Notes: generated by a model not told the origin, from the letters alone. A DNA stretch of 64,000 nucleotides from an uncultured Acidobacteriota bacterium (GCA_963713825.1 CAVQNG010000025.1:768001-832000), one strand, 5' to 3'; positions 3,701 through 21,321 are shown, counted from the first letter of the stretch. Translations and numbers: made by a program.

Positions 3701-3728
3701 GCCCGACGGCAGGGCCCGTGGCCCGAGA

Positions 3729-5174
3729 TCATTGGATATAGCCGAGAGCCTTCAAGCGCTCTCGTTCTGCATCGGTCAGCACGCTGTCACCCGACGCTGT
3801 CACTCCTGGCTCTTCCCTGTGGAGCTCCTGGGCCATTGTTCGGTTGGCCTTCACCAGTTCTTTGAGCTCCTTGCGGAGGCGAGCCGTCAGCTCCGGGTGG
3901 GATTCTGCGAGGTTGGTTGTCTCGCCCGGATCCTGCCGGAGATCGTAGACCTCCTCGGTGCCAGCTTTCAGGTCGTGAATGATCTTGTGGTCGTCGGTCC
4001 GCATGGCGAAGCGCATTCGGTTCAGCTTGTTCTGGCTCAGGGCGGCTCGCTCGGTGAAGGGGTCGCCCTGGATCAGGGGTACGAGACTCCTGCCCTGGAG
4101 CGGATGCGAGGCTTGCAGACCAATCAGATCGAGGACGGTTGGTAGCAGGTCCACGATCTCGATCTGGGTGTCTATTCTGGTCCCTGCCAGGTGCTGTCGA
4201 GGCAGCTTCAGAAGCAGGTCGACCCGCACCGACTCGTCGTAGATCTGACTGTGCAGGAACTTGCCGTGCTCCTGGAACTCCTCGCCGTGATCCGAGGTGA
4301 GCACGATGAGGGACCTGTCATAGAGACTCTGTTCCTCGAGGAGGCTGAAGAGCTTCCCCAGGTCGCGATCCAGGTAGCGGACGCCGGATTCGTACAGCCT
4401 GCGAAGGCTCGCGACGTGCGCGTCGGGAACGACGCGTCCTTCACGGTCGGCTTCGAGCAGGAATTGCGTCGCGCAGCGCCCCTGGTCGTCACAGAAGGCG
4501 TCCTTCTCGACCGTTCCCAGATCGTCACGGAACCTGGCGGGGGAGTAGTAGGGCAATCGATTGCGCCCCTGCTGAAAGAAGTCCGAGTGGGCATCCATGT
4601 AGTGCAGGAAGAGAAACAGGGGCCGTGGGTCTTCGGCTGCCGCGGCCAGCGCTTCCGCGGCGCTGGCGTTGACCCTGTCTGAATAGGTCAGCCGGTGCGG
4701 CAGTCGCTGGTAGTCCTCGAAGCCTCGCCCGAATCCGAATTCGGCCTTCAGCCAGTCATTGGTCACCCTGCCAGTGGTCCGGTAGCCGGCCTCCTGCAGG
4801 ATTTCGGACAAAGTCTGGATGCTGCCGGAGAGGCTTTCCTTCGGTGTCGTGACGCGATGAACCTGGGGATACAGGCCAGTGAACATCGACATGTGCGAGG
4901 CCAGGGTGAAGGGCATGGGGACCACGACCTTGGTCAAGAGCACCGAATCGACTGCGAACTGATCGAGGCTGGGCGTCAGGGAGGGTTCCTCGCCCCGCGT
5001 TGCGCCCAGCGCATCCCAACGCAGGGTGTCCAACGAGATGAAGATGATCGGTGGCAGCTCTCGAGTGGTCTGCCGCGACCCGCAACCGGGTAGCGCGATA
5101 GCAGCCAAGGTCAGCGTCAGGGCGGCGGCTCGCAGGAGGCGTTGTCTGCACAGTGAGGCGAAGGGGCGGGACAT
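3729..5174 (-). CDS. Sulfatase-like hydrolase/transferase, probable lipoprotein
   Basis: SLDTLRWD, PFTLASH, SDHGEEFQEHG, LKALGYIQ; hydrophobic N-terminus ending LPGC. Confidence 0.85.
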   Translation of the reverse strand: MSRPFASLCRQRLLRAAALTLTLAAIALPGCGSRQTTRELPPIIFISLDTLRWDALGATRGEEPSLTPSLDQFAVDSVLLTKVVVPMPFTLASHMSMFTGLYPQVHRVTTPKESLSGSIQTLSEILQEAGYRTTGRVTNDWLKAEFGFGRGFEDYQRLPHRLTYSDRVNASAAEALAAAAEDPRPLFLFLHYMDAHSDFFQQGRNRLPYYSPARFRDDLGTVEKDAFCDDQGRCATQFLLEADREGRVVPDAHVASLRRLYESGVRYLDRDLGKLFSLLEEQSLYDRSLIVLTSDHGEEFQEHGKFLHSQIYDESVRVDLLLKLPRQHLAGTRIDTQIEIVDLLPTVLDLIGLQASHPLQGRSLVPLIQGDPFTERAALSQNKLNRMRFAMRTDDHKIIHDLKAGTEEVYDLRQDPGETTNLAESHPELTARLRKELKELVKANRTMAQELHREEPGVTASGDSVLTDAERERLKALGYIQ

Positions 5175-5185
5175 GGGTCGAGTCT

Positions 5186-6619
5186 CTAGTCGATGTAGCC
5201 CAGAGATCGGAGTTGTTCCAGAGTGTCGTCGTCGAACTCCATGGTTTCATCGGAGACGGAGGTGTCGATACCTGCTAGCTCTCGTTCCATCAGGTCGGTC
5301 AACTCGGCAACCAACTCGGGCCGCTCCGCCGAAAGATCGACCTTCTCGTCGGGGTCGGCGCGGAGGTCGAAGAGTTGGACGAACCCGTCGTAGCGTCGAA
5401 TCAGCTTGAACCTTCCGAAGGTGATGGCGCGCGAATCGGGTCCGTAGGCCGGCGATTCGGCGAGCGATGGCTGCGGCTCGCAGCTCGGCGCTTCTTGGCT
5501 GCTGGTCAGAAAGGCGGTCAGGCTGTTGCCTCTCAACCCCTCAGGAATCGGCAGACTCAGCGCCTCCAACGAGGTCGGAACGACATCTACCAGTCGGGCC
5601 GGGCACTCGACGCGTCGGCCCTCGTCGATACCGGGCCCTCGGAAAATCAGGGGAACGTGCAAGAGCTCCTGGTACATCGAGTGGCCATGACCGATGCCCC
5701 AGAATCCTCGCGGATCCTGTGCGAGCTCCCTCTCTTGCTTGGCATGGTCCCAGAACTCCTCACCGTGATCCGAGGTCACGATGATCAGAGTTTCTTCCAA
5801 CTGTCCGGCCTGTTGTAGGGCATCGAGCAGGCGTCCGATCTCCGTGTCCACGTAGCGCAGAGCGCCATCGTAGAGGGCCAGCTTGTGGTCCCGAAAGAGC
5901 GTGAAGTTCGGGCCCTTGAAATTGTCGTGTGAGCCGAAACGCCAGTCTGTGTATTTCTTGTCGCGGGGTCCCGGAAGCTCCTTGCCGAACATGGTGAAGA
6001 AGGGCTCGGGCGGCACGAGCGGCTGGTGCAGATCCATGTACTGAACGTAGAGGAAGAACGGCTCGCCTTCCACAGCGGTGAGGAAGTCCAGCGCACTGTC
6101 GGTCAGCGTGGTTGCATCCGTCCTTTCGACTTGCGCCACATCGAAACCACGCTTGAAGCGGCCAAAGAGGTAGGGGTTGGCCGACACCAGCGCCGTGCGG
6201 AAGTCGGCATCCGAGAGGATTTGTCCCAGGGTCCGAGTCTCCTTGCGCAGTTGCCGGACCTCGGAATCACTGAGGTTGCGAACCTCTCCGGTGATTCCGG
6301 CCCCGTGCTCGCTCGGGTAGAGCGATGTGAGCAGGCTGGCGGTCGCCGGAACCGTCCAGTTCGATTGCGAGAGTGCCAGGTCGAAAACAACACCCTCTGA
6401 AGCCAACTGGTCGATCCGGGGGGTTGTCGGACGATCGTTGCCATAGAGGCTCATCCGATCGGTGCGCAGCGTATCGAGGCACAAGATGACCAGGTTGCGA
6501 GCCGACGGGGTGGTACCCGGATCGGGGTCATTTGGCGTGCCGCACGAGATCTGGATGAGGCCGAGCCAGGCCAAGAAGACGGCGGTGCAGGAGGTTCTCA
6601 TCTGTGATTTGGAGAGCAT
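5186..6619 (-). CDS. Sulfatase-like hydrolase/transferase, exported
   Basis: CLDTLRTD, NWTVPAT, SDHGEEFWDH, LRSLGYID. Start moved to in-frame ATG 6619 (or 6601) because the 6910 start overlaps the divergent gene. Confidence 0.85.
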   Translation of the reverse strand: MLSKSQMRTSCTAVFLAWLGLIQISCGTPNDPDPGTTPSARNLVILCLDTLRTDRMSLYGNDRPTTPRIDQLASEGVVFDLALSQSNWTVPATASLLTSLYPSEHGAGITGEVRNLSDSEVRQLRKETRTLGQILSDADFRTALVSANPYLFGRFKRGFDVAQVERTDATTLTDSALDFLTAVEGEPFFLYVQYMDLHQPLVPPEPFFTMFGKELPGPRDKKYTDWRFGSHDNFKGPNFTLFRDHKLALYDGALRYVDTEIGRLLDALQQAGQLEETLIIVTSDHGEEFWDHAKQERELAQDPRGFWGIGHGHSMYQELLHVPLIFRGPGIDEGRRVECPARLVDVVPTSLEALSLPIPEGLRGNSLTAFLTSSQEAPSCEPQPSLAESPAYGPDSRAITFGRFKLIRRYDGFVQLFDLRADPDEKVDLSAERPELVAELTDLMERELAGIDTSVSDETMEFDDDTLEQLRSLGYID

Positions 6620-6791
6620 GCTTGACTGGTGGGGACCGAGCCCACCCATGTTCGAGCAGGTCGATCTTCGGTCCGCTCCGAGACTATCGCAAACGTGGAA
6701 CCTACCGGTATTAAGATGCGGCAGGGTCGGCCTTACGGGCCGGATGTGGGTTTGACGCTCCAGGGTGAAGCTGGTAGGAAATGGACTACTC

Positions 6792-8606
6792 ATGAAATGC
6801 CGAGGGTACAGACTTGGTGTTGTGGCTCTGGTGATTCTGGCTGGCCTATCTGTTGCCAGCTGCTCGGGCCCTGATCGTCCGCAGTCGGTGGTGGTAATCA
6901 CCATGGACACGACACGTGCCGATCACCTGGGTCCGTACGGCTACGACGACGCTCAGACTCCCACCATCGAGCGTCTCGCTGCCGATGGAACGCTCTACGA
7001 ACGGGCCTATTCGGTCACCGCGGAGACACTTCCCTCCCACTCCAGCATCTTCTCCGGCCTCTATCCTCCCAGTCATGCGGTGCGTTTGAATCTCTCCTTC
7101 AAGCTGGCCGACGAGGTCACGACGCTGGCTGAGGTCCTGCGGAGAGAGGGGTTTTTCACGGCGGCAGTCACCGCCGCCTCCGTCCTGGAACGTCGCTTCG
7201 GGCTCAATCAGGGCTTCGAGGTTTACGAAGGGCCGGAGATCGACGAGCAGAAGCCGGGCCGGCTCACCGAGTTCAGTGCCGAGGTCGTGACCACGAAAGC
7301 CCTCAGCGCTATCTACGAGCATGGCGAGGGTCCGTTCTTCCTCTGGGCCCACTACTACGATCCGCACAGCCCCTTCGAGCCCAGATATCCCTTCCAGGCC
7401 CCGGATGGCACGCCACCAGAGAGCGTTGAGCTCTACGATCTCGAGATCGCCTATACCGATTATTGGATCGACCGCTTGCTCGAGGGTCTCGAGACTCACG
7501 TCGGACTGGAGGACACGCTTATCGTCTTCACTGCCGACCACGGCGAAAGCCTCGGCGATCATGGCGAGTCGTATCACACGCTCTTCATCTACGATTCCAC
7601 GGCCCACGTGCCCATGATCTTGGTCGGTCCTGGTGTTCCCAGGGGCCAGCGAGTTGCCGAAGTGGTTTCCTCCGTGGACCTCTTCTCGACCGTGCTGGCT
7701 CTCCTGGGGCTCGAGGCACCTCCGAGCAATTCGCGGATCCTTCCCGGTCTACCCGTCAGCCCCGAGACTGCAACGGTCGATCGGGTGGCCTATAGCGACT
7801 CCATGACGCCACCACTACGGTACGGCTGGCATTCCCTGGAGGCGGTCCGCACCGATGAATGGTTCTATATCCGCGCTCCAGACGAGGAGCTCTATCACTT
7901 CGACGGCAGGGACCCCGGCCAAGTGGCCAACCTCTTCCAGGTCGAGGAAGAGGCAGCATCGGAGATGCGGCAGGTCCTGGCCGGGACCAAAGGAGCGATG
8001 CCTTCCGTGGCCGACGACCAGGTGGCCGAGCGCATGACCAGCGAGGCCGAACGGCAGGCGCTCGAGGCCCTGGGCTACATTGACAGCGGGTCGGACTCCG
8101 CAACGGATGCGGAATCCAACGTTCTGGATCCGAAGGACATGGTAGAGGTGGAGGAGGCCATCCAGCTGGCCAGGCTCGCCAGCCGCATGGGCCGCCTCGA
8201 GACTTCCGAAGATCTCTTGAGCTGGGCGACCACGGCCGACCCGGAGAACTTCACAGTCTGGATGCAGCTCGGCAAGACCCGTCTCGCCGCGGGCAATCTG
8301 GAGGCCGCTCTCGAAGCGCTGTATCGCTCCCTGGAGATCAAACCCGAGTCCTGGGAGGTCCAGGTCCAGGTGGCGGCAGCGGAAGAGAAGCAGGGCAACC
8401 TGAAGGCCGCCGAATCGATGCTCGACAAGGCACTGGCAACCAGCCCGTTCCCGGTCGAGGTCTGGCGATCTCTCGTCAAGATGCGCCTTCAGTCGGGTGA
8501 CCGAGATGGTGCTACCGACGCACTCCGCGAGATCTTGGAGTTGGAACCCGACAACGAGCGGGCCCGCAAGACCCTGGAAGCCATGCCTGCGGGCGAGGCC
8601 CAGTAA
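6792..8606 (+). CDS. Sulfatase-like domain fused to C-terminal TPR repeats, probable lipoprotein
   Basis: TMDTTRAD, ETLPSHSS, ADHGESLGDHGE, internal LEALGYI, then TPR-like helices (W.QLG......GNLEAA...L...LEIKPE); lipobox VASC. ATG 6792 chosen as start. Confidence 0.85.
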   Translation: MKCRGYRLGVVALVILAGLSVASCSGPDRPQSVVVITMDTTRADHLGPYGYDDAQTPTIERLAADGTLYERAYSVTAETLPSHSSIFSGLYPPSHAVRLNLSFKLADEVTTLAEVLRREGFFTAAVTAASVLERRFGLNQGFEVYEGPEIDEQKPGRLTEFSAEVVTTKALSAIYEHGEGPFFLWAHYYDPHSPFEPRYPFQAPDGTPPESVELYDLEIAYTDYWIDRLLEGLETHVGLEDTLIVFTADHGESLGDHGESYHTLFIYDSTAHVPMILVGPGVPRGQRVAEVVSSVDLFSTVLALLGLEAPPSNSRILPGLPVSPETATVDRVAYSDSMTPPLRYGWHSLEAVRTDEWFYIRAPDEELYHFDGRDPGQVANLFQVEEEAASEMRQVLAGTKGAMPSVADDQVAERMTSEAERQALEALGYIDSGSDSATDAESNVLDPKDMVEVEEAIQLARLASRMGRLETSEDLLSWATTADPENFTVWMQLGKTRLAAGNLEAALEALYRSLEIKPESWEVQVQVAAAEEKQGNLKAAESMLDKALATSPFPVEVWRSLVKMRLQSGDRDGATDALREILELEPDNERARKTLEAMPAGEAQ

Positions 8607-8712
8607 CCTTCCAAAGCCACTCTCGGGCAGTGTTCCGCTGCTTGGAGTCCTCACAACTTGTTGGACCCCTGGCGTCTATGTAGCACGGAGCACAGACATA
8701 TTCCTTCTCGTC

Positions 8713-8861
8713 TATACTTCAGCTGAAAGAAAAGAAAGTTCCTAAGGAGAGCACCTCGCGATGATCTCGAGGCTGAATCCTGTGCAGCATGCCCTGGTGG
8801 CAACCCAAGTGGGCTCTGCCGAGGGGAGTGCTGTGCAAAACCTGACAGAAAGGAGTAGGGA
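8713..8861 (+). promoter_or_regulatory. Putative promoter and conserved leader, copy 1 (upstream of fibre gene 1)
   Basis: TATACT at 8713, CCTCG-N9-CGAGG at 8754-8772, TGGCA-containing stem at 8798, AGAAAGGAG RBS; same layout upstream of all three paralogues. Confidence 0.55.
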
Positions 8862-10535
8862 ATGCGAGCGCGAGTAGTGGTAGGTCTTGTTGTCATCAGT
8901 CTGGTCGCGGCGGTAGGTGCCGCTGCTCCAGGGTCCGGTGCCAAGGCAGTCGCAACCGAAAGCGTGTCGGCGACGGGCCTTTCAATCACGCCGCAGGTTG
9001 CCTACGAGCAGGCGATGCTGCGAATCACAGGCCCCCAGGGCTACCACGGGAGGCAGAAGTTCGAAGCTGGAGCTGCCATTCAGGCGGACCTGACCTCCTT
9101 TGGCAGCAAGTCGTCCCACGGGAACCGTCAGCAACGTGGAGTTCGAGAGGAGCTCGCCGAGCGGACAGCGATGCCCAATGGACGGTACAAGTTCGAGGTG
9201 GCCTTCATGGCCGGCGGCAAGAAGGTCGGCGTCCATTCCGGAATGTTCTTCGTCGAGGGCGGTCTTACCGTCAGCCGGGATTCCAAGAGGTCGCAGCTGG
9301 CGCAGGTCCGTCAGGATCTGGGTCGGGAGCGACAACAGATGGCTGCCAAGGGATCGCGCCCCCAGATGTCGTCGGAAAAGCGTGGATCGGGGCTCAGGAG
9401 CGGCAAGACCGAGGCACCCATGTCCACGGAGGCACCGGTCACGGAGGGCTATCCCATCGCCGATTACATCGTTCTGTACCCCTACTCTGTTCCTACAACT
9501 TGGCTGGGCCTGGTGGCGTACGACTATCTCACCTATCAGTACGAGTCGATGTCGATCTCGAACTACGCTGGCGACCTCAGGATCGCCGACTACTACTACC
9601 CGTCCTACTTCAATCCTTACATTCGGGATCTCATGACCGTGACTAGCTACGGCAACGTCGGCATCGGCACGACCGCGCCCTATAACAGGCTGGAGGTGAC
9701 TGGCTACCCCTCGCAATTTGGGATCGGCTACGATGGATACTACAGTTCGGTGGGTGTCGGGTTTGCGGGTTTTTGGCTCTATGACGACGACTACGAACCC
9801 ATCGCCACGTTCAACCATAACGCGGATGCCTTTACCCTGGTCGTCGATGCTGAGGGCGTGGGCGTGGGCGACTTCCCCTACGTCTACCCTTATGGTTTCA
9901 CTGTCCCCGCTGTGGATCTCCATGTAAAGGACGAAGATCCCCAACTCCTGATCGAGTCCAGCTCAGGCACGACGGCGGGCCGTACCTTGGCCTACATGAA
10001 GAATCCCGGCGATGTCCGGATGTTCTGGGAGAACACCGACTCTGGAGACATCTGGCAGATGTCGATGCTCTCGACGGTGCTGCAGATGGCGACGCCGACC
10101 GGCAATGGAAAGTTTCGGGTCCGGAAGAGCGGCGGCTTGCAGGCCTTGAATGGGTCAACCGAGATAATGGCCCTCAACTCGACCGGGGACCTGACAGTGA
10201 AGTCGGTGACCGAGACCTCCAGCCGAGAGGCCAAGAATGGATTCGAATCCGTGGATGGGCTCTCGGTCCTGGAGAAGGTGGCAGCCTTGCCCATCTCAGA
10301 GTGGAGCTACAAGGTCGACAACCCCGGGGTGCGGCACCTCGGTCCGATGGCCGAGGATTTTCATGCCGCCTTCGGCCTGGGCAAGACCGGCAAGGGCATC
10401 ACCTCGGTCGACACCACGGGCGTGGCCCTGGCCGCCATTCAGGGCTTGAATCAGAAGCTGATGGAGAAGAACGCCCAGCTGGAGCAGCGCTTGCTCGAAC
10501 TCGAGGAGATGGTGCAAGCACTGGCCGAGCACTAG
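8862..10535 (+). CDS. Secreted fibre-like protein 1 with C-terminal Peptidase_S74 intramolecular chaperone
   Basis: Sec-type signal peptide, GNVGIGT shaft repeat, TSSREAK (Ser/Lys autocleavage-type site), WSYK...HLGPMAEDF...FGLG and a terminal coiled coil. Confidence 0.85.
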   Translation: MRARVVVGLVVISLVAAVGAAAPGSGAKAVATESVSATGLSITPQVAYEQAMLRITGPQGYHGRQKFEAGAAIQADLTSFGSKSSHGNRQQRGVREELAERTAMPNGRYKFEVAFMAGGKKVGVHSGMFFVEGGLTVSRDSKRSQLAQVRQDLGRERQQMAAKGSRPQMSSEKRGSGLRSGKTEAPMSTEAPVTEGYPIADYIVLYPYSVPTTWLGLVAYDYLTYQYESMSISNYAGDLRIADYYYPSYFNPYIRDLMTVTSYGNVGIGTTAPYNRLEVTGYPSQFGIGYDGYYSSVGVGFAGFWLYDDDYEPIATFNHNADAFTLVVDAEGVGVGDFPYVYPYGFTVPAVDLHVKDEDPQLLIESSSGTTAGRTLAYMKNPGDVRMFWENTDSGDIWQMSMLSTVLQMATPTGNGKFRVRKSGGLQALNGSTEIMALNSTGDLTVKSVTETSSREAKNGFESVDGLSVLEKVAALPISEWSYKVDNPGVRHLGPMAEDFHAAFGLGKTGKGITSVDTTGVALAAIQGLNQKLMEKNAQLEQRLLELEEMVQALAEH

Positions 10536-10637
10536 AGGATAGAGCAGCGTGATGTTGGCATAGCTGCCGCAAATCTCATACCGCATCGCTTTCCTGGGCG
10601 CGTCTCCGACCTGAATCGGAGACGCGCCCCTTTCTTT
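10536..10637 (+). repeat. ~100-bp 3' trailer, copy 1, ending in an intrinsic terminator
   Basis: Closely similar to 12403-12499; perfect 14-bp stem GGGCGCGTCTCCGA/TCGGAGACGCGCCC (10596-10629) followed by CTTTCTTT. Confidence 0.85.
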
Positions 10638-10695
10638 GAACCCCGGGCTCGGGCCCGATTGTGAAATCCGTCACAGTTCTACACCCTCCCTCCGA

Positions 10696-10839
10696 TATAC
10701 TCGTTTCTATCGAGTCGATGTAGTTTGGTGGGTAATGCCTCGTGGCGATTTCGAGGGTTTCTAACCAGATGTTCCGTGGCAGGTCGATGCGGCCGAGTCG
10801 GCGGGAGATTTCTAAAAACCTAACAGAAAGGAGACAGGA
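10696..10839 (+). promoter_or_regulatory. Putative promoter and conserved leader, copy 2
   Basis: TATACT at 10696, CCTCG-N9-CGAGG at 10738-10756, TGGCA-GGTCG-ATG-CGGCC at 10777, AGAAAGGAG RBS. Confidence 0.55.
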
Positions 10840-12402
10840 ATGAGGACAAAAGTAACTTGTGGATTGTTCATGCTTGTGTTGGCGACCCTGCCGGTCCTGG
10901 CGCAACCTGTGGCGACGGAAAGCGTGTCGGCAGCCGGCCTTTCGATCGCGACCGGAGTTGCCTACGAGGAGGCAACGCTGCGAGTGACAGGCCCAAATGG
11001 CTATAGCCTCAATCAGAGATTCGAGGGTGGTAGCCCAATCATGGTAGATCTGCTTGCCGAAGGTAGTTTCGGTAGGCCTGGAATGTCTGCGCTCAAGCGC
11101 AATGAGGTAGAGATTGGCCGAGGATTGACCGACGGTCTGTACAGGTTCGAAACGATCTTCTTGGCCGGCGGCAAGAAAGTCGACGTCCATTCGGGGACCT
11201 TCTTCGTCGAAAGTGGACTGGCGATCAGTCGAGATGCCAAACGGGCAGATCTGGGCGAGGTGCGTGACGATCTACTCCTCGACGCCGAACATCTGGCGGA
11301 CAGTCAGACAGTGGCAGACAACGTCGATGGTCTGTCTTACACGGAATCATACGCCGCACAAGATCACATCGATATTTTTGATGGCGCCAACGACGGGCTG
11401 ACGTTTCTGTCTCTCGATTCGGACACGAGCGGTGGAAGCCTGATCAACTACATGTTCACGTATAACGACAGCGGTGTTTTTAAGATCGGAACCAGTACCA
11501 ACAGCTCCCGGCCCGTTCCTGATGTGAACTTGGTCAACATCGATTCAACCGCAAAAGTCGGAATAGGTACCACGACGCCAGAAGCATTCTCCCGAATGCA
11601 CATCCGTGGCGCGACATCGGGTCTCATGGTGCTCGAAGAGGGCGATACTGGTCTTGAGACATGGGTAGGACCCTTCGATGACAAGTTCTTGATTGATGGT
11701 ATAGGTGGTGGGATCGAGGTTGGCATCTTGAATAGCAACGGGAATTTTGGGATTGGCACCTTCACTCCCGAAGCCAAGCTTCATATTGAGGACAACGAGC
11801 CTCAGATTCTGGTGAATTCGACCGGAGCGACCACAGGCCGCACCCTCGCCTACCTGAAGAACAACGGTGATGTGAGGTTCTTCTGGGAGAACACCAACTC
11901 CGGAGACATCTGGCAGATGTCGATGCTCTCTACGGTCCTACAGATGTCGTCACCCACCGGGGTGGGAAAATTCAGGGTGCGGAAGAGCGGCGGCCTGCAG
12001 GCGTTGAATGGCTCGACGGAGATCATGGCCCTCAACTCGACAGGTGACCTGACGGTCAAATCGGTGACCCAGACCTCGAGTCGCGAGCAGAAGCTGGGAT
12101 TCGAGTCGGTCGATGGGATCTCGGTCTTGGACAAGGTGGCCGGACTCCCGATCTCGGAGTGGAGCTACAAGGCCGACAATCCGTCGGTTCGCCACCTCGG
12201 TCCGATGTCGGAGGACTTCCACGCGGCATTCGGCCTCGGCAAGACCGACAAGGGTCTGACGTCAGTCGACACTGCCGGCGTGGCGCTGGCGGCCATCCAG
12301 GGCCTGAACCAGAAGCTGGAAGAGAAGGACGCCAGGATCGGCGAGCTGGAGCAGCGACTGCTCGAGCTCGAAGAGCTGGTGCAGGCGTTGGCCGAGCACT
12401 AG
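10840..12402 (+). CDS. Secreted fibre-like protein 2 with Peptidase_S74 chaperone
   Basis: Signal peptide (VLA-QP), N-domain homologous to paralogues 1 and 3, KVGIGTTTP and GNFGIGTFTP repeats, TSSREQK, HLGPMSEDF, coiled coil. Confidence 0.85.
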   Translation: MRTKVTCGLFMLVLATLPVLAQPVATESVSAAGLSIATGVAYEEATLRVTGPNGYSLNQRFEGGSPIMVDLLAEGSFGRPGMSALKRNEVEIGRGLTDGLYRFETIFLAGGKKVDVHSGTFFVESGLAISRDAKRADLGEVRDDLLLDAEHLADSQTVADNVDGLSYTESYAAQDHIDIFDGANDGLTFLSLDSDTSGGSLINYMFTYNDSGVFKIGTSTNSSRPVPDVNLVNIDSTAKVGIGTTTPEAFSRMHIRGATSGLMVLEEGDTGLETWVGPFDDKFLIDGIGGGIEVGILNSNGNFGIGTFTPEAKLHIEDNEPQILVNSTGATTGRTLAYLKNNGDVRFFWENTNSGDIWQMSMLSTVLQMSSPTGVGKFRVRKSGGLQALNGSTEIMALNSTGDLTVKSVTQTSSREQKLGFESVDGISVLDKVAGLPISEWSYKADNPSVRHLGPMSEDFHAAFGLGKTDKGLTSVDTAGVALAAIQGLNQKLEEKDARIGELEQRLLELEELVQALAEH

Positions 12403-12499
12403 AGGATAGCGCAGCGTGAGGTTGGCATAGCCGCCGCAAATCTCACGCCGCATAGCTTTCTTGGGCGCGTTTCCGGGCTGACCGGAGACGCGCCTTTTT
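12403..12499 (+). repeat. 3' trailer, copy 2, ending in an intrinsic terminator
   Basis: Stem GGCGCGTTTCCGG/CCGGAGACGCGCC (12464-12494) plus TTTTT; an upstream hairpin GCGTGAG...CTCACGC at 12414-12448. Confidence 0.85.
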
Positions 12500-12548
12500 C
12501 TCTCTGGTCCCTTGGTCGAATCATCGGCGACTTGCTCGCCGCGTCCGT

Positions 12549-12697
12549 TATACTGAATTTGTTCGAGTCAGCTGTGCATTCGGGGGGAATGCCTCGTGCC
12601 AAACTCGAGATCTCATCTCAGACGAGAGGCCCTTGGCAGGCCGATATGGCCGTGTCCATGGGACAAGTCTAGGAACCCCTACGAAAAGGAGGAGGCG
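12549..12697 (+). promoter_or_regulatory. Putative promoter and conserved leader, copy 3
   Basis: TATACT at 12549, CCTCG-N9-CGAGA at 12592-12610, TGGCA-GGCCG-ATA-TGGCC at 12634, AAAAGGAGGAGG RBS. Confidence 0.55.
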
Positions 12698-14431
12698 ATG
12701 ACGGCGAGAGCGATAGTCGGATTGGCGTTGATGAGCCTGGTGGCGGTGGCATCCGTGGCCGCACCGGGGCCGCAGGCTCGAGTGGTAGCCATCGAGAACT
12801 TGTCGGCAACGGGCCTTACGATCACTCCACAGATCGCTTACGAGCGGGCGACCCTGCGCATTCAGGGCCCGCATGGCTACGTGGGTCGGCAGAGGTTCGA
12901 GGTGGGGGAGCCCATCCAGATCGACCTGGCCTCCTTTGGCAGGAGATCGGCCGGACTCCGGCACCAGAGACCAGGCCTGCAGGACGAACCGGCGAATCGG
13001 GTTGCGATGCCCGACGGCCGCTACAAGCTCGAGGTCGTCTTTGTGGCTCGCGACAAGAAGGCGGGTGTCCACAACGGGATGTTCTTTGTAGAACAGGGCC
13101 TGGCAGTCAGTCGGGACGTCAAACGGGCTCAGCTGGCTACCCTGCGAGGCGACCTGGCCAAGACTCGTCAACAGATCGCAGCAGGCAATCGGGGTGGAGC
13201 ACCGATGTCCGTCGAGCGCCCCGGCCGTCGACTCTCCGGCGAGGGGACCGGTGGGCCGATATCGTTCGAGGCTCCAATACCCGAGGGCGCCGGCTTTGCC
13301 GACTACCTATCGGTATACCCGGTCTTGCGCCCCAACTACACCTGGTCGGCCCTGGGCAATCAACCAGGGCCTTACTCTTCGGCGGCTTGGTCGATGATCC
13401 ACTCCTACGGCTACCTGGGCTTTTATTACGGTGGGTATCCCTATCCCCTGGACCACATTGCCGGCTATCCGTACCCACAGGTCAGCTTCACTCCCGCCTA
13501 TGGCTACTACGGAACCAGGGTCGGAATCGGCACGACCACGCCGGTGGAGACGCTGGACATCAATGGTGCCTACGCATACTGGGGACAGTTCGGTATCACC
13601 GGATATGGCGGCTACCGAAGCTACGTGGGTGTCGGGGGCCTCGGTCTGTGGCTGTACGACGACGACTATGAGCCGATCGTCAACTTCAATCACGGGGCGG
13701 ATCCGGGGACCTTGGTGGTGGATGCCGAGGGTGTGGGCGTCGGCGACTTCTCCTACGGCGTTCCCTTGCAGGATCTTCACGTCAAGGCGGACGAACCGCA
13801 GCTGCTCGTGGAGTCCACCGCCGGGACGACTACTGGCCGCACTCTGGCCTATATGAAAAATCCTGGCGATGTTCGGATGTTCTGGGAGAACTCGGATTCC
13901 GGGGACGTCTGGCAAATGTCGCTTTTGGCGACGGTACTCCAGATGTCGACCCCGTCTGGAGATGGCAAGTTTCGCGTTCGCAAGAATGGGGGCTTGCAGG
14001 CGTTGAACGGCTCGACCACCATCCTGGACCTCAACGCTACGGGCGATCTGACGGTCAAGTCGGTGACGGAGACTTCCAGCCGCGACGCCAAGCGGGGGTT
14101 CGAGACCGTGAATGGGCTGTCGGTTCTCGAGAAAGTGGCCGCCCTGCCCATTAGCGAGTGGAGTTATCGTGCCGACAGCCCTTCCGTGCGCCATCTCGGT
14201 CCCATGGCCGAGGACTTTCATGCCGCGTTCGGTTTGGGCAAAACGAACAAGGGACTGACGTCAGTGGACACTTCAGGTGTGGCCCTGGCGGCGATTCAAG
14301 GCCTGAACGAGAAGCTGGTTGAAAAGGACGCCCGGATCGCCGAGCTCGAATCCCGGCTGCAGGGGGTCGAGGAGATGGAACTCCGACTGCTAGAGCTCGA
14401 GCAGATCGTCGAGACTCTGGTGGAGCATTGA
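12698..14431 (+). CDS. Secreted fibre-like protein 3 with Peptidase_S74 chaperone
   Basis: ATG 12698 follows an AGGAGG RBS; signal peptide MTARAIVGLALMSLVAVASVAA; RVGIGTTTP; TSSRDAK; HLGPMAEDF; coiled coil. Confidence 0.85.
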   Translation: MTARAIVGLALMSLVAVASVAAPGPQARVVAIENLSATGLTITPQIAYERATLRIQGPHGYVGRQRFEVGEPIQIDLASFGRRSAGLRHQRPGLQDEPANRVAMPDGRYKLEVVFVARDKKAGVHNGMFFVEQGLAVSRDVKRAQLATLRGDLAKTRQQIAAGNRGGAPMSVERPGRRLSGEGTGGPISFEAPIPEGAGFADYLSVYPVLRPNYTWSALGNQPGPYSSAAWSMIHSYGYLGFYYGGYPYPLDHIAGYPYPQVSFTPAYGYYGTRVGIGTTTPVETLDINGAYAYWGQFGITGYGGYRSYVGVGGLGLWLYDDDYEPIVNFNHGADPGTLVVDAEGVGVGDFSYGVPLQDLHVKADEPQLLVESTAGTTTGRTLAYMKNPGDVRMFWENSDSGDVWQMSLLATVLQMSTPSGDGKFRVRKNGGLQALNGSTTILDLNATGDLTVKSVTETSSRDAKRGFETVNGLSVLEKVAALPISEWSYRADSPSVRHLGPMAEDFHAAFGLGKTNKGLTSVDTSGVALAAIQGLNEKLVEKDARIAELESRLQGVEEMELRLLELEQIVETLVEH

Positions 14432-14610
14432 CGGTACCGGGGTGCAGGGACCGTGACGACATCCCTGGAGATGGCTGATCATGCCTACAATGTGGCCGTG
14501 GATGACAGCACAACTGGACTCGGCGTGGCGGAGTTTGGCGTAAAATGACACTGTCTACGTATAGATAGTCAGTGGAACCGAGACAAATGCAGTTTCTGTT
14601 ATAAGATAGC

Positions 14611-14639
14611 TTGACAAACCCGGAAAGGCTTTGTAGGTT
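14611..14639 (+). promoter_or_regulatory. Sigma70-type promoter
   Basis: TTGACA (14611-14616), 17-bp spacer, TAGGTT (14634-14639), preceded by an AT-rich stretch. Confidence 0.65.
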
Positions 14640-14691
14640 GAGTTGAGCAGAGGTACATCCGGAAAAGGTGACGTCGAAACGGAGGATTGCC

Positions 14692-15348
14692 ATGACCAAG
14701 ATCAAGTACACAGTTTTGCTTGCAGCCCTAGTTGTTCTTTTGCCCGCAATGGCCAGCGCCAATGCCCTTGATGTCAACGCCAACGCGGCGCTGACGGGCT
14801 CGGTCGGGACCGCCTGTGGTGGCAGTCCTTGTGGCCTCGAGGTCCAGATTACGGACCAGGACCAGGCCTACGTCGCTTCGACCCATCCGGATGCGGAATC
14901 TCACGTCGTTATTACCTTCCGAGTCGACCCCAACGACATCGTGTTGCCCGACTATGGGCCGGACGACAAGCCTGGACGGATTCGTGTCCTCAAGGCCTTC
15001 AACGATGCGGCATCCTCTCGCCAGCATATGTTCGTCACCGTAAAGAGGGGTGCATCGGCCTACAGGTTGGCGGTGCTGCAGCGGAACAACAACGGGGACT
15101 TCGCGTTCATCGGAGAGTTCTTCCTGGGAAACAAGGACAGCGAGATCAAGATCGATTGGACAGCGGGGAACCCTGGTACTGTCGTGGTCTACCGAGATGG
15201 CACTGAGTTTGCCAGGAGAGAGACCCTCAACTTCGCGAACCACAACATCGACGAGGTCCGCCTGGGTGCTCCTGGTGGCGATCCTGATGCCATCACTGCT
15301 GGAGTCTCGGGAAGCGTCTACCTGGACGAGTACGTTTCGACCCGTTAA
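14692..15348 (+). CDS. Secreted single-domain beta-rich protein of unknown function
   Basis: GGAGG RBS, signal peptide ending ASA-NA, alternating hydrophobic beta-strand pattern, C-terminal IDEVRLGA...YLDEYVSTR; has its own promoter and terminator. Confidence 0.8.
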   Translation: MTKIKYTVLLAALVVLLPAMASANALDVNANAALTGSVGTACGGSPCGLEVQITDQDQAYVASTHPDAESHVVITFRVDPNDIVLPDYGPDDKPGRIRVLKAFNDAASSRQHMFVTVKRGASAYRLAVLQRNNNGDFAFIGEFFLGNKDSEIKIDWTAGNPGTVVVYRDGTEFARRETLNFANHNIDEVRLGAPGGDPDAITAGVSGSVYLDEYVSTR

Positions 15349-15374
15349 GCCTGTCTACCTGTCCGATTATGTCG

Positions 15375-15410
15375 AAGGCCCTCTGTGGTTACACAGGGGG
15401 TCTTTTCTTT
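15375..15410 (+). terminator. Intrinsic terminator
   Basis: AAGGCCCTCTGTG-GTTA-CACAGGGGGTCTT stem followed by TTCTTT. Confidence 0.8.
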
Positions 15411-15511
15411 GCCCGGCGATCGTTGCCGAGTGCTTGCCGAAGCCAAAAAGCTCTGGCACAATCGACGCGTTCTGAGGCTACCCTCCCCTGCCTCGGTGCA
15501 GGGACAAGATC

Positions 15512-16813
15512 GTGAAAAAAGCTACGAGTGCTCTTCTCCTGACCGTGCTCACGCTGGCTCTGCTGGAAGTCGGTTCGTGGGTCTACCTGTCCGTTTTCGA
15601 GGATCTGACCTACGCTGATCTCGCGGCAGAGAAGAACAGACAAGTCAATATCGTCATGGCGGGGAAGAACCCCGGCGACGTGAGGTTCTGGAACAACCAG
15701 AAATTTCAGCTGCATCCCTATTTCGGATATACGCTCGAGCCCTGGAGCGCTGACGGCGTCAACAACGCTGGACTGATCTCCGAGAAGACCTACCCTTACG
15801 TGTCGGACGGAAGCTCCCTTGCAGTGGGTGTCTTCGGTGGTTCGGTGGCAGGGAACATCTTCTTCCATATCGACAAGGTGCGTCGGCAGCAGCTGGAGAA
15901 GCTCCTGCTTCCCCTTGTCGCCGAGAAGGGATATACGAGCGTTGAATTCCTGAACTTCACGCTGGGAGGCTACAAGCAGCCCATCGATCTGTTCAACTTC
16001 ATCTACTACCTCGAAACGATCGACGTCGCCATATTCATCGGCGGGTTCAACGAGGTCCATCAATTCAGCACCAACGTGGAGGACCATGAGTTTCCAGCCG
16101 ACTTCCCGAAGTGGAAGTACTGGAGAACGCTAGGGGAGGGAACCTTCAGCCCAGCCGAGCTCAGGCTCATCGGCCGACTGGCGAGAAATCGCGATTGGCA
16201 GAACGCTGTGACCGGCTTTGCGTCGGCACCCGTGTTGAATCGCAGCATGTTCGTGCACATGCTCTGGAGAGCGGCAACGGCTGTCCTGATGAAATCGGTG
16301 AATGAGAGCAGGGCGGAGTTGGATGAAGAGGAGGGCAACGAGCGTGTCTATCCTCAGGTCGCCGACAGCGGTGACTTGGAAGATATCGCTGGTGTCTTTC
16401 TCGACAAACTCGGCAGTTATATCAGAAGCGCTGACGCGGTCGGGCGGGCTGGTCAGGTGCTGACTTTGTTCGTCATTCAGCCCAATCAGTACGTTCCGAG
16501 CTCGAAGCCGCTCAGCGACGTCGAGAAACGTGACTTCTTGACCAGCGAGAACCTGCCCCAGGTCATCTCTGAATGGTACCCGCGAATCCGCGAACTGTAT
16601 GGCGAGCTCGGTGCAGAGGGCATCTTTACCGTCGATTTGACTGAGGTGTTCTCCGATACGCAAGAGACCACCTACGCGGACGAGTGCTGCCATCTCAATG
16701 CTCTGGGTCGCAGAATCGTAACCGACAAGATTTTCGAGTCCATGATTTCCAGGGAAGGGTTTCTGGACACTCTGCCGAGGACGGATCAGCGGCAAAGGAA
16801 CGAGCTGCGATGA
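15512..16813 (+). CDS. Membrane-anchored SGNH/GDSL-like protein, possible glycan O-acyl modifier
   Basis: N-terminal TM helix, VGVFGGSVA (block I-like), GGFNE and YADECCHLNALG (D-x-x-x-H, block V-like). Confidence 0.6.
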   Translation: MKKATSALLLTVLTLALLEVGSWVYLSVFEDLTYADLAAEKNRQVNIVMAGKNPGDVRFWNNQKFQLHPYFGYTLEPWSADGVNNAGLISEKTYPYVSDGSSLAVGVFGGSVAGNIFFHIDKVRRQQLEKLLLPLVAEKGYTSVEFLNFTLGGYKQPIDLFNFIYYLETIDVAIFIGGFNEVHQFSTNVEDHEFPADFPKWKYWRTLGEGTFSPAELRLIGRLARNRDWQNAVTGFASAPVLNRSMFVHMLWRAATAVLMKSVNESRAELDEEEGNERVYPQVADSGDLEDIAGVFLDKLGSYIRSADAVGRAGQVLTLFVIQPNQYVPSSKPLSDVEKRDFLTSENLPQVISEWYPRIRELYGELGAEGIFTVDLTEVFSDTQETTYADECCHLNALGRRIVTDKIFESMISREGFLDTLPRTDQRQRNELR

Positions 16814-18216
16814 GGACATCCCGTTGGCGGGTAGCGTTGCTTCTTCCGATGGCAGGTCTGGCGCTCGGATGCTCGGGAAGTCCAGAAGGGGTCGTGGTCG
16901 AGAGTTCCTGCGATGGATGCAACGTCCTCCTGATCTCCATCGACACCCTGCGAGCGGATCATCTGGGCACCTATGGGTACGGCAGGGAGACCTCACCCGC
17001 CATCGATGCGCTGGCGTCCGAGTCGGTGGTCTTCGAGAGGGCCTACAGCACCTCCTACCACACCGCCGATTCCCACATGTCCATCTTCACCTCGCTCTAC
17101 CCGTCGGTGCATGGAGTGCGAAACAGCAAGGGTAAGACAGGGCAGGTGCTCTCGGCTTCTGTCCCGACGCTGCCCGAGATTTTCCAGGCCAATGGGTACG
17201 CCACTGCGGGGTTCCACGGCGGCGGCAATGTCTCTGGCTTCTACGGATTTGCCAGGGGCTTCGAGAAGTACAAGCGAACAGATGAGGTCGGTGACGCCAT
17301 TGCCTGGATCCAGGAGACGGGTCCCAGACCTTTCTTCGCGTTCGTCCACACCTATCACGTTCACGATCCCTACACTCCGCTGCCACCGTATGACTCCTGG
17401 TTTGCTGAAGACTATGACGGCCCCATCTCCGCCGATCGAGAGTCGCTGCTGGCGCAAACGGACGACGAGAGCTTCAACGAGCTGCGGGATGTCTTCTGGA
17501 ATCAGATCGATCCGTCGAGCCAAGCAGACATCGAGCACCTGAAAGCCCTCTACGACGGCCAGATTCGAGACATCGACGGCCGCATCGGGGCGTTGATCGA
17601 GGCCGCGTTGGCGGCCGATGAGAGAACGGTCGTCGTGTTGCTCTCGGACCACGGTGAGGAGTTTCAGGAGCACGGCAAGTTTCTTCACGACCAGCTCTAT
17701 GAGGAGTTGCTGTGGGTACCGCTCATTCTCCGTTTGCCTTCCGGTGAACGGAGTCGGGTCGAGGAGCGGGTCAGCCTCATCGACATCGCCCCGACATTGT
17801 TGGACCTGCTGGGCCTCGAAGCTCCGGCCCAATTCCAGGGCGCCAGCCTCCTCCCAGTCCTGGCGGGTAAGGAGGACCGACCCCTGATCTACGGCGAGAA
17901 GGTTGTGCGAGCTCCGGGGATCGACGATGAAGCAGAAGACGGTGAACCGGGGATTCGGGCGGCCCTGATCTCCGACGACTGGAAGGTCATCACTGCCAGG
18001 TCCCAGGAGTTGTACTATCTACCCGACGATCGGCTGGAGCAGAGCAACCTGGCTGCGAAGAGTCCGAAGATGAGAGGCCTTCTCAAGCTGCTGGCGGATG
18101 TAAACCGACGCAACGCCGCGCTCCGCAAAGAGCTTGGTACCGGTCGAGGAGAACGACAAGGGCTGGACGAGGAGACCCTCGAAGAGCTCGAGGCTTTGGG
18201 CTATCTGGGGAACTAG
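16810..18216 (+). CDS. Sulfatase-like hydrolase/transferase, probable lipoprotein
   Basis: ATGA overlap with the upstream stop; ALGC lipobox; SIDTLRAD, YHTADSH, SDHGEEFQEHG, LEALGYL. Confidence 0.85.
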   Translation: MRTSRWRVALLLPMAGLALGCSGSPEGVVVESSCDGCNVLLISIDTLRADHLGTYGYGRETSPAIDALASESVVFERAYSTSYHTADSHMSIFTSLYPSVHGVRNSKGKTGQVLSASVPTLPEIFQANGYATAGFHGGGNVSGFYGFARGFEKYKRTDEVGDAIAWIQETGPRPFFAFVHTYHVHDPYTPLPPYDSWFAEDYDGPISADRESLLAQTDDESFNELRDVFWNQIDPSSQADIEHLKALYDGQIRDIDGRIGALIEAALAADERTVVVLLSDHGEEFQEHGKFLHDQLYEELLWVPLILRLPSGERSRVEERVSLIDIAPTLLDLLGLEAPAQFQGASLLPVLAGKEDRPLIYGEKVVRAPGIDDEAEDGEPGIRAALISDDWKVITARSQELYYLPDDRLEQSNLAAKSPKMRGLLKLLADVNRRNAALRKELGTGRGERQGLDEETLEELEALGYLGN

Positions 18217-18228
18217 CCACGAGCCGGC

Positions 18229-19341
18229 CTAGGGGGATTTCGCCGCCAGTTGCCTGAATAGCGCCGCGTACTGTTCGGTGACAGCTTGCCAGCTGTAGCG
18301 AGCTGACGCCAGGGCCGCGGCGCGACGGGCGGGGTCCTCCCTGAGATCCGGGTCGCCAGTCAGAGCCTGCAACTGTGCGGTGAGAGTCGATGGCCGCCGG
18401 GCATCGAAATAGAGGCCGGTTTCGGCAGCCACCTCCCGATTCTCGGGCGTGTCGTTGACCACGACGCAGTTGCCATAACCCATCGCCTCGACAAGGGCCG
18501 GATGGGTGCCTCCGACCTCGGTGGCATGGATGTAGGCCAGCGAGTGGGAAAGCAACTCCTGATAGCCCTGTCCATAGATTGGTCCCGGGAACAGGACTCT
18601 GGGGTCAGCGCCCTCCGTAAAGCCTCGAACGAACCGATCTGCGTAGGGGGCCCCTCCCACCATCACGAGGGGCAGGTCGCCATCCACAGCCCGGTAGGCC
18701 TCTGCCACGCGGTGGGGATTGTTCTCGGGCTCGAACCGGCTGACGTACAGGAAGAACCGCCGTGACTCGAGGCCAAGTCGCTGCATCGTCTCGCCCGGCT
18801 GCAGGGGCTGCGGATCCACTCCGTATTTCAGCACCGTCGAGTCGGCCTTGCGGTTCTCGAGGTAGTACTCGCGAATCACTTCCGCATCGGTGATCAGGGT
18901 GGTGGGGACCAGGACCGCCAGTCGCTCGGATAGCGAGTACGCCAGCCGTCCCAGAGGGCCCCACTTGGCTCGTTGTCGCTCGATTCCATCGACATGCAGA
19001 GCCACCGGAGTGCCGCCAACTCTCAGCAGGGGAACGAAGATGGCGTTGACCGAGTTGACGACCAGCGCGGCGTCGAAATCTTGGCGTGCAGCATGTAGGC
19101 AGGCGAGCAGTGTGTGGATCGGAGTATCCAGGTACTTGGTTCGCACGGTCGGTAGGACGGTGAGCTTCACTCCTCGGTAGCAGCCCATGTCGCGAGGTGT
19201 GTAGTGACTGCGGCAGTAGACCGTTACATCGAGGCCCGAACGAGCGAGCCGAGTAGAGAGCTCCTCCATGAGGGTCTCGTAACCACCATAGCGGGCCGGA
19301 ATCCCGCGGCTGCCGATCAGGGCTACCTTCAAGGGGCTCAA
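18229..19341 (-). CDS. Glycosyltransferase family 4 (DUF1972-type N-terminus)
   Basis: IGSRGIPARYGGYET, VSRFEPENN and EVGGTHPALVEAM; TTG start overlapping the upstream TGA is inferred. Confidence 0.88.
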   Translation of the reverse strand: MSPLKVALIGSRGIPARYGGYETLMEELSTRLARSGLDVTVYCRSHYTPRDMGCYRGVKLTVLPTVRTKYLDTPIHTLLACLHAARQDFDAALVVNSVNAIFVPLLRVGGTPVALHVDGIERQRAKWGPLGRLAYSLSERLAVLVPTTLITDAEVIREYYLENRKADSTVLKYGVDPQPLQPGETMQRLGLESRRFFLYVSRFEPENNPHRVAEAYRAVDGDLPLVMVGGAPYADRFVRGFTEGADPRVLFPGPIYGQGYQELLSHSLAYIHATEVGGTHPALVEAMGYGNCVVVNDTPENREVAAETGLYFDARRPSTLTAQLQALTGDPDLREDPARRAAALASARYSWQAVTEQYAALFRQLAAKSP

Positions 19342-20336: not shown

Positions 20337-20339
20337 GAC

Positions 20340-21311: not shown

Positions 21312-21321
21312 TCCGCTAACT

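Follow-up and report, generated by a model that had tools for sequence, protein, structure and literature searches.

The question raised by this locus is whether three genes whose products end in an S74 domain belong to a phage or to the bacterium that carries them. In phage fibres, the S74 domain trimerises the beta-helical stalk upstream of it and then cleaves itself. The genes lie in a 64,000-nucleotide stretch of DNA, here called the window, from an uncultured Acidobacteriota bacterium (GCA_963713825.1 CAVQNG010000025.1:768001-832000; positions are counted from its first letter), and the original prediction, made from the sequence alone, read their products as host-encoded, secreted trimeric surface filaments or adhesins. 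In this study, we find that the three paralogues are probably chromosomal, non-phage, secreted homotrimeric fibres of Acidobacteriota, of the mosaic adhesive trimer (MAT) type described in Bdellovibrio. They form a tandem head-to-tail array:

8862-10535, + strand: fibre gene 1 (P0001), 557 amino acids (aa), from open reading frame (ORF) call, translation and PF13884 match
10840-12402, + strand: fibre gene 2 (P0002), 520 aa, from ORF call, translation and PF13884 match
12698-14431, + strand: fibre gene 3 (P0003), 577 aa from the ATG at 12698; the longest ORF runs from a GTG at 12596

The ATG at 12698 was taken as the start of gene 3 because it has an AAAGGAG ribosome site as in genes 1 and 2 and gives a matching signal-peptide-like N-terminus. 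All three proteins share one architecture of signal-peptide-like start, N-domain, middle, distal shaft, S74 domain and coiled coil, and the predicted layout of tandem paralogues with a shared N-domain, a divergent middle and a conserved distal shaft was borne out by the ORFs, the segment identities and the N-domain model. Proteins 2 and 3 are 56% and 66% identical to protein 1. Segment identity among the three is 0.53 in the N-domain, 0.27 in the linker, 0.25 in the middle, 0.78 in the distal shaft, 0.83 in S74 and 0.66 in the coiled coil, and thus the variable part lies away from the chaperone, as had been noticed from the sequence. Across the C-terminal 200 codons, identity at four-fold sites is mostly 0.4-0.55 against an amino-acid identity of 0.76-0.92. 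Recent gene conversion behind the near-identical C-termini is ruled out since the four-fold sites are near saturation; the three paralogues are old copies under purifying selection, with no recent homogenisation.

We scanned 185,579 species genomes, which gave 329 stretches with relatives, and kept 79 loci. ORFs were called in these loci and searched with hidden Markov models (HMMs) of the N-domain, the distal shaft and the S74 part, and neighbouring ORFs were scanned with Pfam. About 30 full-length close relatives were found, several of them on one contig.

The C-terminal part of the proteins is where the link to phage fibres lies:

10218-10421, + strand: S74 domain of gene 1, residues 453-520 (Ser453 codon 10218-10220, Lys458 codon 10233-10235)
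10422-10532, + strand: C-terminal coiled-coil helix of gene 1, residues 521-557 (model helix H515-556; heptad-spaced trimer contacts)
12076-12399, + strand: S74 domain and coiled coil of gene 2 (Ser413 codon 12076-12078, Lys418 codon 12091-12093)
14075-14077 and 14090-14092, + strand: codons of Ser460 and Lys465, the dyad of gene 3 (motif reading)

All three proteins match PF13884 (Peptidase_S74) above the gathering cut-off of 22 bits, with 30.7, 24.1 and 27.1 bits for genes 1, 2 and 3, over residues 453-504, 413-464 and 460-511, so the S74 assignment made from the sequence holds. The domain begins at the first Ser of TSSRxxK, a motif that is present in all three proteins along with HLGPM(A/S)EDF, both as previously read; relatives mostly have SDRxxK where the window proteins have TSSRxxK. 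The Ser-x4-Lys dyad is invariant in family members (33/33) and in aligned S74 segments from different loci (55/55). By analogy with Bd3182 of Bdellovibrio, self-cleavage is expected before Ser453, Ser413 and Ser460, i.e., between T and SSR, and the cut placed between TS and SR in the original prediction was one residue off. The coiled coil that had been proposed at the C-terminus agrees with a predicted helix at residues 515-556 of gene 1. Searches of the PDB with the S74 part returned spurious coiled-coil matches, the best S74-only match being MyRF (7DC3, E 0.06). Outside S74, the rest of the three proteins matched no other Pfam, NCBIfam or PHROGs family.

Upstream of the chaperone lie a conserved and a variable part of the shaft:

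9348-9911, + strand: low-confidence linker (residues 163-211), then variable beta-rich middle (residues 212-350) of gene 1 (segment identity, fold model)
9657-9692 (VGIGTTAPYNRL) and from 9858 (VGVGDFP...DLHV), + strand: capping loops of gene 1 (motif reading)
from 11557 and from 11746, + strand: capping loops of gene 2 (motif reading)
from 13520 and from 13733, + strand: capping loops of gene 3 (motif reading)
9912-10217, + strand: conserved distal shaft of gene 1, residues 351-452 (segment identity, HMM, trimer contacts)

The GxVGIGT motif that had been described as shaft repeats is present, but each protein has merely two capping-loop motifs, one canonical (VGIGTTxPxxxL type) and one degenerate. 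The distal shaft has a mean identity of 0.77 in 28 close members and its HMM matches 56 ORFs, while the variable middle is poorly conserved (identity 0.25-0.37). By analogy with MAT fibres, the distal shaft would be the fibre tip after cleavage.

A model of three copies of gene 1 residues 255-557 gave closely intertwined chains in each of three runs (scores 0.86, 0.85 and 0.87), whereas the best of three controls scored 0.00. The model has ~1000 contacts, pLDDT 86-87 and partner pLDDT of at least 86, and at least 94% of contacts are common to the runs; the intertwined contacts are in the distal shaft and heptad-spaced contacts are in the coiled coil. In calibration, 20 of 30 proteins solved as same-chain pairs reached the mark used here, as did 1 of 23 single-chain ones. 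Since S74 and MAT trimers have already been solved, memorised structures may account for part of this pass. The model supports, but does not show, trimerisation along the fibre. As a full-length monomer, the protein was modelled with a mean pLDDT of 55, confident only in the N-domain and in helix 139-162, with the shaft below 50, which is expected of an obligate trimer.

The N-terminal part comprises the following segments:

8862-8948, + strand: signal-peptide-like segment of gene 1, residues 1-29 (MRAR, a hydrophobic run, then AKA before V; crude hydrophobicity rule and eye)
8949-9275, + strand: N-domain of gene 1, residues 30-138, an eight-strand beta-sandwich (alignment, fold model)
9276-9347, + strand: helix behind the N-domain of gene 1, residues 139-162 (DSSP H139-162, pLDDT about 60-79)
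10903-11235, + strand: N-domain of gene 2
12779-13117, + strand: N-domain of gene 3

Each protein opens with a basic n-region, which leads into a hydrophobic run and then an AxA-like site, as judged by a crude hydrophobicity rule and by eye, in keeping with the Sec signal peptide predicted earlier for each of them. Neither a Cys lipobox nor a twin-Arg motif was seen at the N-terminus of gene 1. Similar starts are found in 65 of the 101 S74 ORFs of the related loci and the window and in 130 of the 148 Met-start representatives of the N-domain family. Directly behind this segment lies the N-domain of ~110-125 aa, modelled for residues ~30-138 of gene 1 as an eight-strand beta-sandwich (pLDDT 85.4, pTM 0.75). 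A fold search against the PDB gave no match at E<=1e-3 and generic FN3/Ig-like sandwiches only (best E 2.3e-3); no Pfam family was found for the N-domain and no NCBIfam family for the three proteins. The helix at residues 139-162 of gene 1 is a possible trimeric neck.

Among 1.84 billion proteins, the N-domain profile detected 2404 cluster representatives (50% identity) at E<=1e-3 and 1218 at 1e-10, and the domain sits at about residues 25-160 in 148 of the 150 best representatives. Named matches are all from Thermoanaerobaculia or Pyrinomonadaceae and called 'tail fiber domain-containing protein', the label already in use at NCBI for such proteins. An Atlas look-up with the whole homologue P0302 returned Acidobacteriota S74 clusters only. 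The domain also occurs in a few Gammaproteobacteria, among them the cultured isolate Tahibacter aquaticus DSM 21667 (locus L006), and a search aimed at longer proteins gave no Bdellovibrio name among 93 matches. The LPDGxYxYEL part of the profile also matches two giant proteins in a partial way, 17 times in P0175 (4065 aa) and 14 times in P0217 (1865 aa); these are probably generic Ig-like repeats and not true members.

The closest link to a described system comes from the shaft. Searched against all PDB sequences, the family profile matches Bd2133 (8OND, E 2.2e-12) over the stretch with VGIGTxxPxxxLHV loops (profile positions 212-344), and also Bd3182 (8OJN/8ONB/8ONC, E 4.1e-7) and Bd1334 (8OML, E 3e-4), with entries assigned to proteins by Supplementary Table S2 of PMC10769870. 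In B. bacteriovorus HD100, the MAT family numbers 21 fibres (Caulton et al., Nat Microbiol 2024, PMC10769870). Of these, 13 end in S74 with SDxxxK, a beta-rich domain, conserved and ~130 aa long, lies directly behind the signal peptide in all 21, shafts are trimeric beta-helices with the capping-loop consensus V-G-G/N-pi-x-x-P-x-x-x-L, and the fibres, whose tips vary while the foot is constant, are located on the predator surface; Bd3182 self-cleaves at S782 and the cleavage is blocked by S782A (PMC10769870). The window proteins resemble the S74 subgroup of MATs (e.g., Bd3182) in being chromosomal, non-phage and Sec-signal-bearing, in ending in S74 with Ser-x4-Lys and in shaft sequence. The architecture is therefore already known from the Bdellovibrio fibres as published in 2024 (PMC10769870), and its novelty had been overstated in the original prediction. 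Judging from search listings, that paper is the sole work found on chromosomal secreted S74 fibres.

There are nevertheless differences. The MATs are 626-1959 aa long (Supplementary Table S1, PMC10769870) while the window proteins, at 520-577 aa, are about half that length; the dyad reads S-D-x-x-x-K in the former and S-S-R-x-x-K in the latter; and unlike the MAT genes, as far as that paper describes them, the window genes form a tandem array within a glycan locus. The N-domain appears to be a separate family, judged against the N-terminus of a fibre from Halobacteriovorax, a predator like Bdellovibrio. Acidobacteriota are absent from the 'predator-associated' MAT table (Supplementary Table S3, PMC10769870). 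The new element is a large branch centred on Acidobacteriota that has a foot domain of its own, a short shaft and a conserved tip and that often lies in glycan loci. The C-termini of N-domain proteins also vary: among 80 representatives of 440-700 aa, 44 carry PF13884 and 36 have no Pfam family, so the family ends appear mosaic, as in MATs. Within those 36, an alternative C-terminal module with a coiled coil was seen in at least 7 by strict motif and in about 17 by eye, the remaining ends being small Cys-containing or beta-rich tips, or truncated. This module (..PDYVFEP.Y.L....L..F....KHLP..PS......L...LLEKVEELTLY..) has no Ser-x4-Lys and no Pfam family, occurs behind the same N-domain in P0154, P0155, P0157, P0174, P0191, P0216, P0247 and about ten more proteins, and may be a non-cleaving counterpart of S74.

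If the fibres were instead orphan parts of a phage-tail-like particle (a prophage remnant, a tailocin or an extracellular contractile injection system) encoded elsewhere, they would be added to it in the cytoplasm. Such an origin is suggested by the S74 part itself. PHROGs searches of 16 window translations matched only the three fibre proteins, in their C-terminal part only (phrog_1980, 'tail fiber protein', and phrog_8003) and none of the other 13, and of 50,697 GenBank phage records only 20 have a match, at 36-48% identity and confined to residues ~437-533. S74 is also mentioned for injection-system fibres in the literature, and the view is limited to 64 kb of a contig said to span 956 kb. 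However, assembly in the cytoplasm is hard to square with the Sec-type start seen in all three proteins and in most of their relatives. The N-domain family is also large, with the domain right behind the signal peptide in nearly all of its best representatives. Pfam scans of 55 window ORF translations revealed no capsid, terminase, portal, integrase, sheath, tube or baseplate family, as the original prediction had stated for the near neighbourhood. Phage hallmark families were likewise absent from 242 neighbour ORFs in 20 loci with the same N-domain fibre, where the sole finds were two insertion sequence (IS) transposases, and from 141 neighbour ORFs in nine further S74 loci (five Rhodobacterales, four Verrucomicrobiota), i.e., 383 ORFs in 29 loci altogether, which agrees with the non-phage context anticipated for homologues. 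We consider a particle encoded elsewhere extremely unlikely. The proposed domestication of a phage module is a separate matter, and our analysis gives no support to a direction of transfer.

The neighbours that are present point to glycans. Pfam identified glycosyltransferases, five sulfatase-family genes and an ABC-2 transporter pair in the window, confirming the glycan genes seen earlier, together with IF3, formate-THF ligase, LepA, a his operon and other housekeeping genes. Counting glycosyltransferases, epimerases, DegT, the sulfatase family, GDSL/AlgX and ABC-2 transporters within 10 kb of the 20 same-foot loci, at least two such families occur in 10 loci, one in 2 and none in 8; the window and L001, a locus from an Acidobacteriota metagenome-assembled genome, fit the pattern. 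L001 is syntenic with the window, with a fibre end, two family-less genes and a sulfatase that are 63-82% identical, and this synteny makes Acidobacteriota the probable phylum of the window. Tandem S74 arrays recur, with four ORFs each in L008, L062 and L064 and three each in L027 and L041.

These neighbours raise the possibility that the proteins are secreted enzymes resembling tailspikes (glycan depolymerases or esterases), which would remodel the polysaccharide made next door and be folded by S74 as endosialidases are. S74 was first described on endosialidases, some relatives are named 'endosialidase-like protein' by JGI, and half of the related loci share the glycan-gene setting. Searches of the N-domain and the middle as permissive as E<=5 (Pfam) or E<=1 turned up no catalytic family, and past foot, helix and linker only ~240 beta residues are left, which match fibre shafts and not enzymes. 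The middle is also too poorly conserved to resemble an active site. An enzymatic role is thus very unlikely, and a fibre remains the reading that we prefer. Under it, the best guess for a ligand or anchor is a glycan of the cell surface or matrix, given how often glycan genes lie next door.

As another alternative, the fibres could be structural trimers inside the envelope, such as struts between its layers, which stay short of the cell surface and do not act as adhesins. A Sec signal delivers the chain to the periplasm only, an outer-membrane export system is missing from the window, and a tip conserved to this degree speaks against external ligands having selected for diversity. On the other hand, the S74 fibre gene adjoins type II secretion genes in five Rhodobacterales loci. 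Type II secretion is an outward route for folded proteins, and these neighbours suggest one way for a folded trimer to leave the periplasm. The sequence-related MAT fibres, moreover, sit on the surface of Bdellovibrio (PMC10769870). On balance we think a purely periplasmic location unlikely. For the window fibres, surface location and adhesin function are inferred by homology; thus, the secreted type, the modelled trimer and the non-phage setting of the original claim stood on evidence from these proteins, while its surface and adhesin parts are carried by homology only.

The five Rhodobacterales loci (L036, L057, L071, L029 and L056; about 0-20 kb each) have a conserved layout of type II secretion M, K, J and G and prepilin peptidase, two Sel1-repeat proteins, the S74 fibre gene and a ~1020 aa ArsP-permease/FG-GAP/ASPIC fusion. 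Sulfotransferases and a carbamoyltransferase are also found there, and four of the five have 2-3 tandem small 'Phage Tail Collar' proteins.

Several points weigh against reading the paralogues as secreted MAT-type fibres. The evidence is wholly computational; the signal peptides were scored by the crude hydrophobicity rule and by eye, and S74 is matched in Pfam with modest scores (24-31 bits against 22). Sequence searches of the PDB with the family profile, with gene 1 residues 440-557 and with a 55-sequence S74 profile returned no solved chain of a phage S74 protein. In the window proteins the stretch beside S74 is the most conserved and the middle is variable, unlike the MATs (PMC10769870). 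The N-terminus of the Halobacteriovorax S74 fibre (P0403, 2202 aa) has no significant similarity to the N-domain (hhalign probability 0.3%), so that one MAT hallmark is matched by analogy only. The P0403 N-terminus has matches (E 1e-10 to 9e-4) at the N-termini of S74 proteins from Verrucomicrobiota and Wenzhouxiangella in related loci, and there are thus at least two foot classes. The glycan-locus association, at 10 of 20 loci without a random-locus control, is a lead and not a result, and Pfam found no outer-membrane export system in the window.

Taken as MAT-type fibres, the proteins suggest the following mechanism. Each chain would be exported by Sec, as its N-terminus implies. In the periplasm, S74 and the coiled coil would gather three chains and template the intertwined beta-helical shaft from its C-terminal end, consistent with the trimer model; templating by S74 is established in phage fibres and in Bdellovibrio Bd3182. 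With the Lys five residues on, Ser453, Ser413 and Ser460 would then cut the chain just before the Ser, releasing a chaperone of ~105-118 aa, as the invariant dyad suggests. The mature fibre of about 390-430 aa may, by analogy with MAT fibres, stand with its N-terminal beta-sandwich as a foot on the cell envelope and its distal shaft as the tip. Foot and tip would be common to the three fibres, and the middle would set them apart.

Phage tailspike and tail-fibre chaperones (PF13884; K1F endosialidase, T5 pb1) share the C-terminal S74 domain with its Ser-Lys dyad followed by a helix, but the window proteins carry a signal peptide and lack both a virion-attachment domain and phage neighbours. The ICA domain of eukaryotic MYRF combines an S74/ICA module with an upstream beta-helix, and the weak match to 7DC3 aligns the Ser-x4-Lys position; MYRF, however, is an endoplasmic-reticulum membrane protein whose cleavage releases a transcription factor, and it forms no fibre. 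YadA-type trimeric autotransporter adhesins are also trimeric surface fibres of diderm bacteria, some relatives are labelled as such by JGI and some carry YadA head repeats (PF05658). A C-terminal outer-membrane beta-barrel anchor family was not found in the three proteins at E<=1 (Pfam), and polarity would be reversed, as the window proteins would lose the C-terminus and have the N-terminus as presumed foot.

The remaining features of the array and its surroundings are as follows:

8607-8861, + strand: 5' leader of gene 1 (leader alignment)
10630-10839, + strand: leader of gene 2, homologous to that of gene 1
12496-12697, + strand: leader of gene 3, homologous to that of gene 1
10596-10629, + strand: strong terminator-like hairpin 3' of gene 1 (14-bp stem, then a T-rich tail)
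12463-12495, + strand: strong terminator-like hairpin 3' of gene 2, homologous to the gene 1 hairpin
2282-8606 and 16684-18216: five sulfatase-family (PF00884) genes flanking the fibre genes, one with a TPR repeat fusion (6765-8606)
14668-15348 and 15512-16813: genes directly downstream of the fibres, for 226 aa with a signal peptide and 433 aa with an N-terminal hydrophobic segment
18229-23900, - strand: four glycosyltransferase genes and an ABC-2 pair (22241-23056 ATPase, 23019-23900 permease)

Common to the three leaders are TATACT, an inverted repeat CCTCG..CGAGG and the ribosome site AAAGGAG. In the intergenic regions (10536-10839 and 12403-12697), the first ~100 bases past the stops of genes 1 and 2, hairpins included, are nearly identical. 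No Rfam match was obtained in the whole window and a sigma-70 promoter scan of 8400-15600 gave no sites. Homologues of the sulfatase-family genes lie beside fibre genes at 25-40% identity in L063, L008, L028 and L006 and at 81% in the syntenic L001. The 226 and 433 aa proteins matched no Pfam (E<=5) or PHROGs family, and their genes are conserved in L001 in the same order (82% and 80% identity). The region 18229-23900 looks like an ABC-transporter-dependent glycan export locus, and a similar ABC-2 pair adjoins the fibre genes of L027. Beyond the window, FG-GAP/ASPIC (UnbV) proteins stand beside S74 fibre genes in 8 of 29 loci (L008:1739-3517, L062:5320-8880, L069:1474-3222 and the five Rhodobacterales), two Thermoanaerobaculaceae loci (L051:3744-4277 and L009:8525-9073) have a gene for an ECF-type sigma factor (Sigma70_r2) immediately upstream of their fibre genes, and L003 has an anti-sigma zinc-finger protein and a subtilase upstream of its fibre gene.

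It is important to ask what such fibres may do in their host. To our knowledge, studies of chromosomal S74 fibres are confined to Bdellovibrio, in which the fibres are interpreted as prey-recognition tools, and we know of no predation in Acidobacteriota. We put forward, as speculation that we ourselves doubt, that MAT-type fibres could be a general device of the diderm envelope and not a predator's tool, with the Acidobacteriota branch and its own foot being machinery of the glycan locus. The foot or tip might then bind the possibly sulfated polysaccharide of the neighbouring glycosyltransferase, sulfatase-family and ABC-2 genes, and the three middles might tie cell and matrix at set distances. 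A bolder form would make these uncultured Acidobacteriota undescribed contact-dependent predators. The view of how S74 domains work is unchanged by this study. It does define a new N-terminal domain, the presumed anchor, and with Tahibacter aquaticus DSM 21667 it points to a cultured carrier for functional study. For the family as a whole, the existence of a large unnamed sister family, mostly in Acidobacteriota and often in tandem in glycan loci, suggests ordinary envelope or matrix roles.

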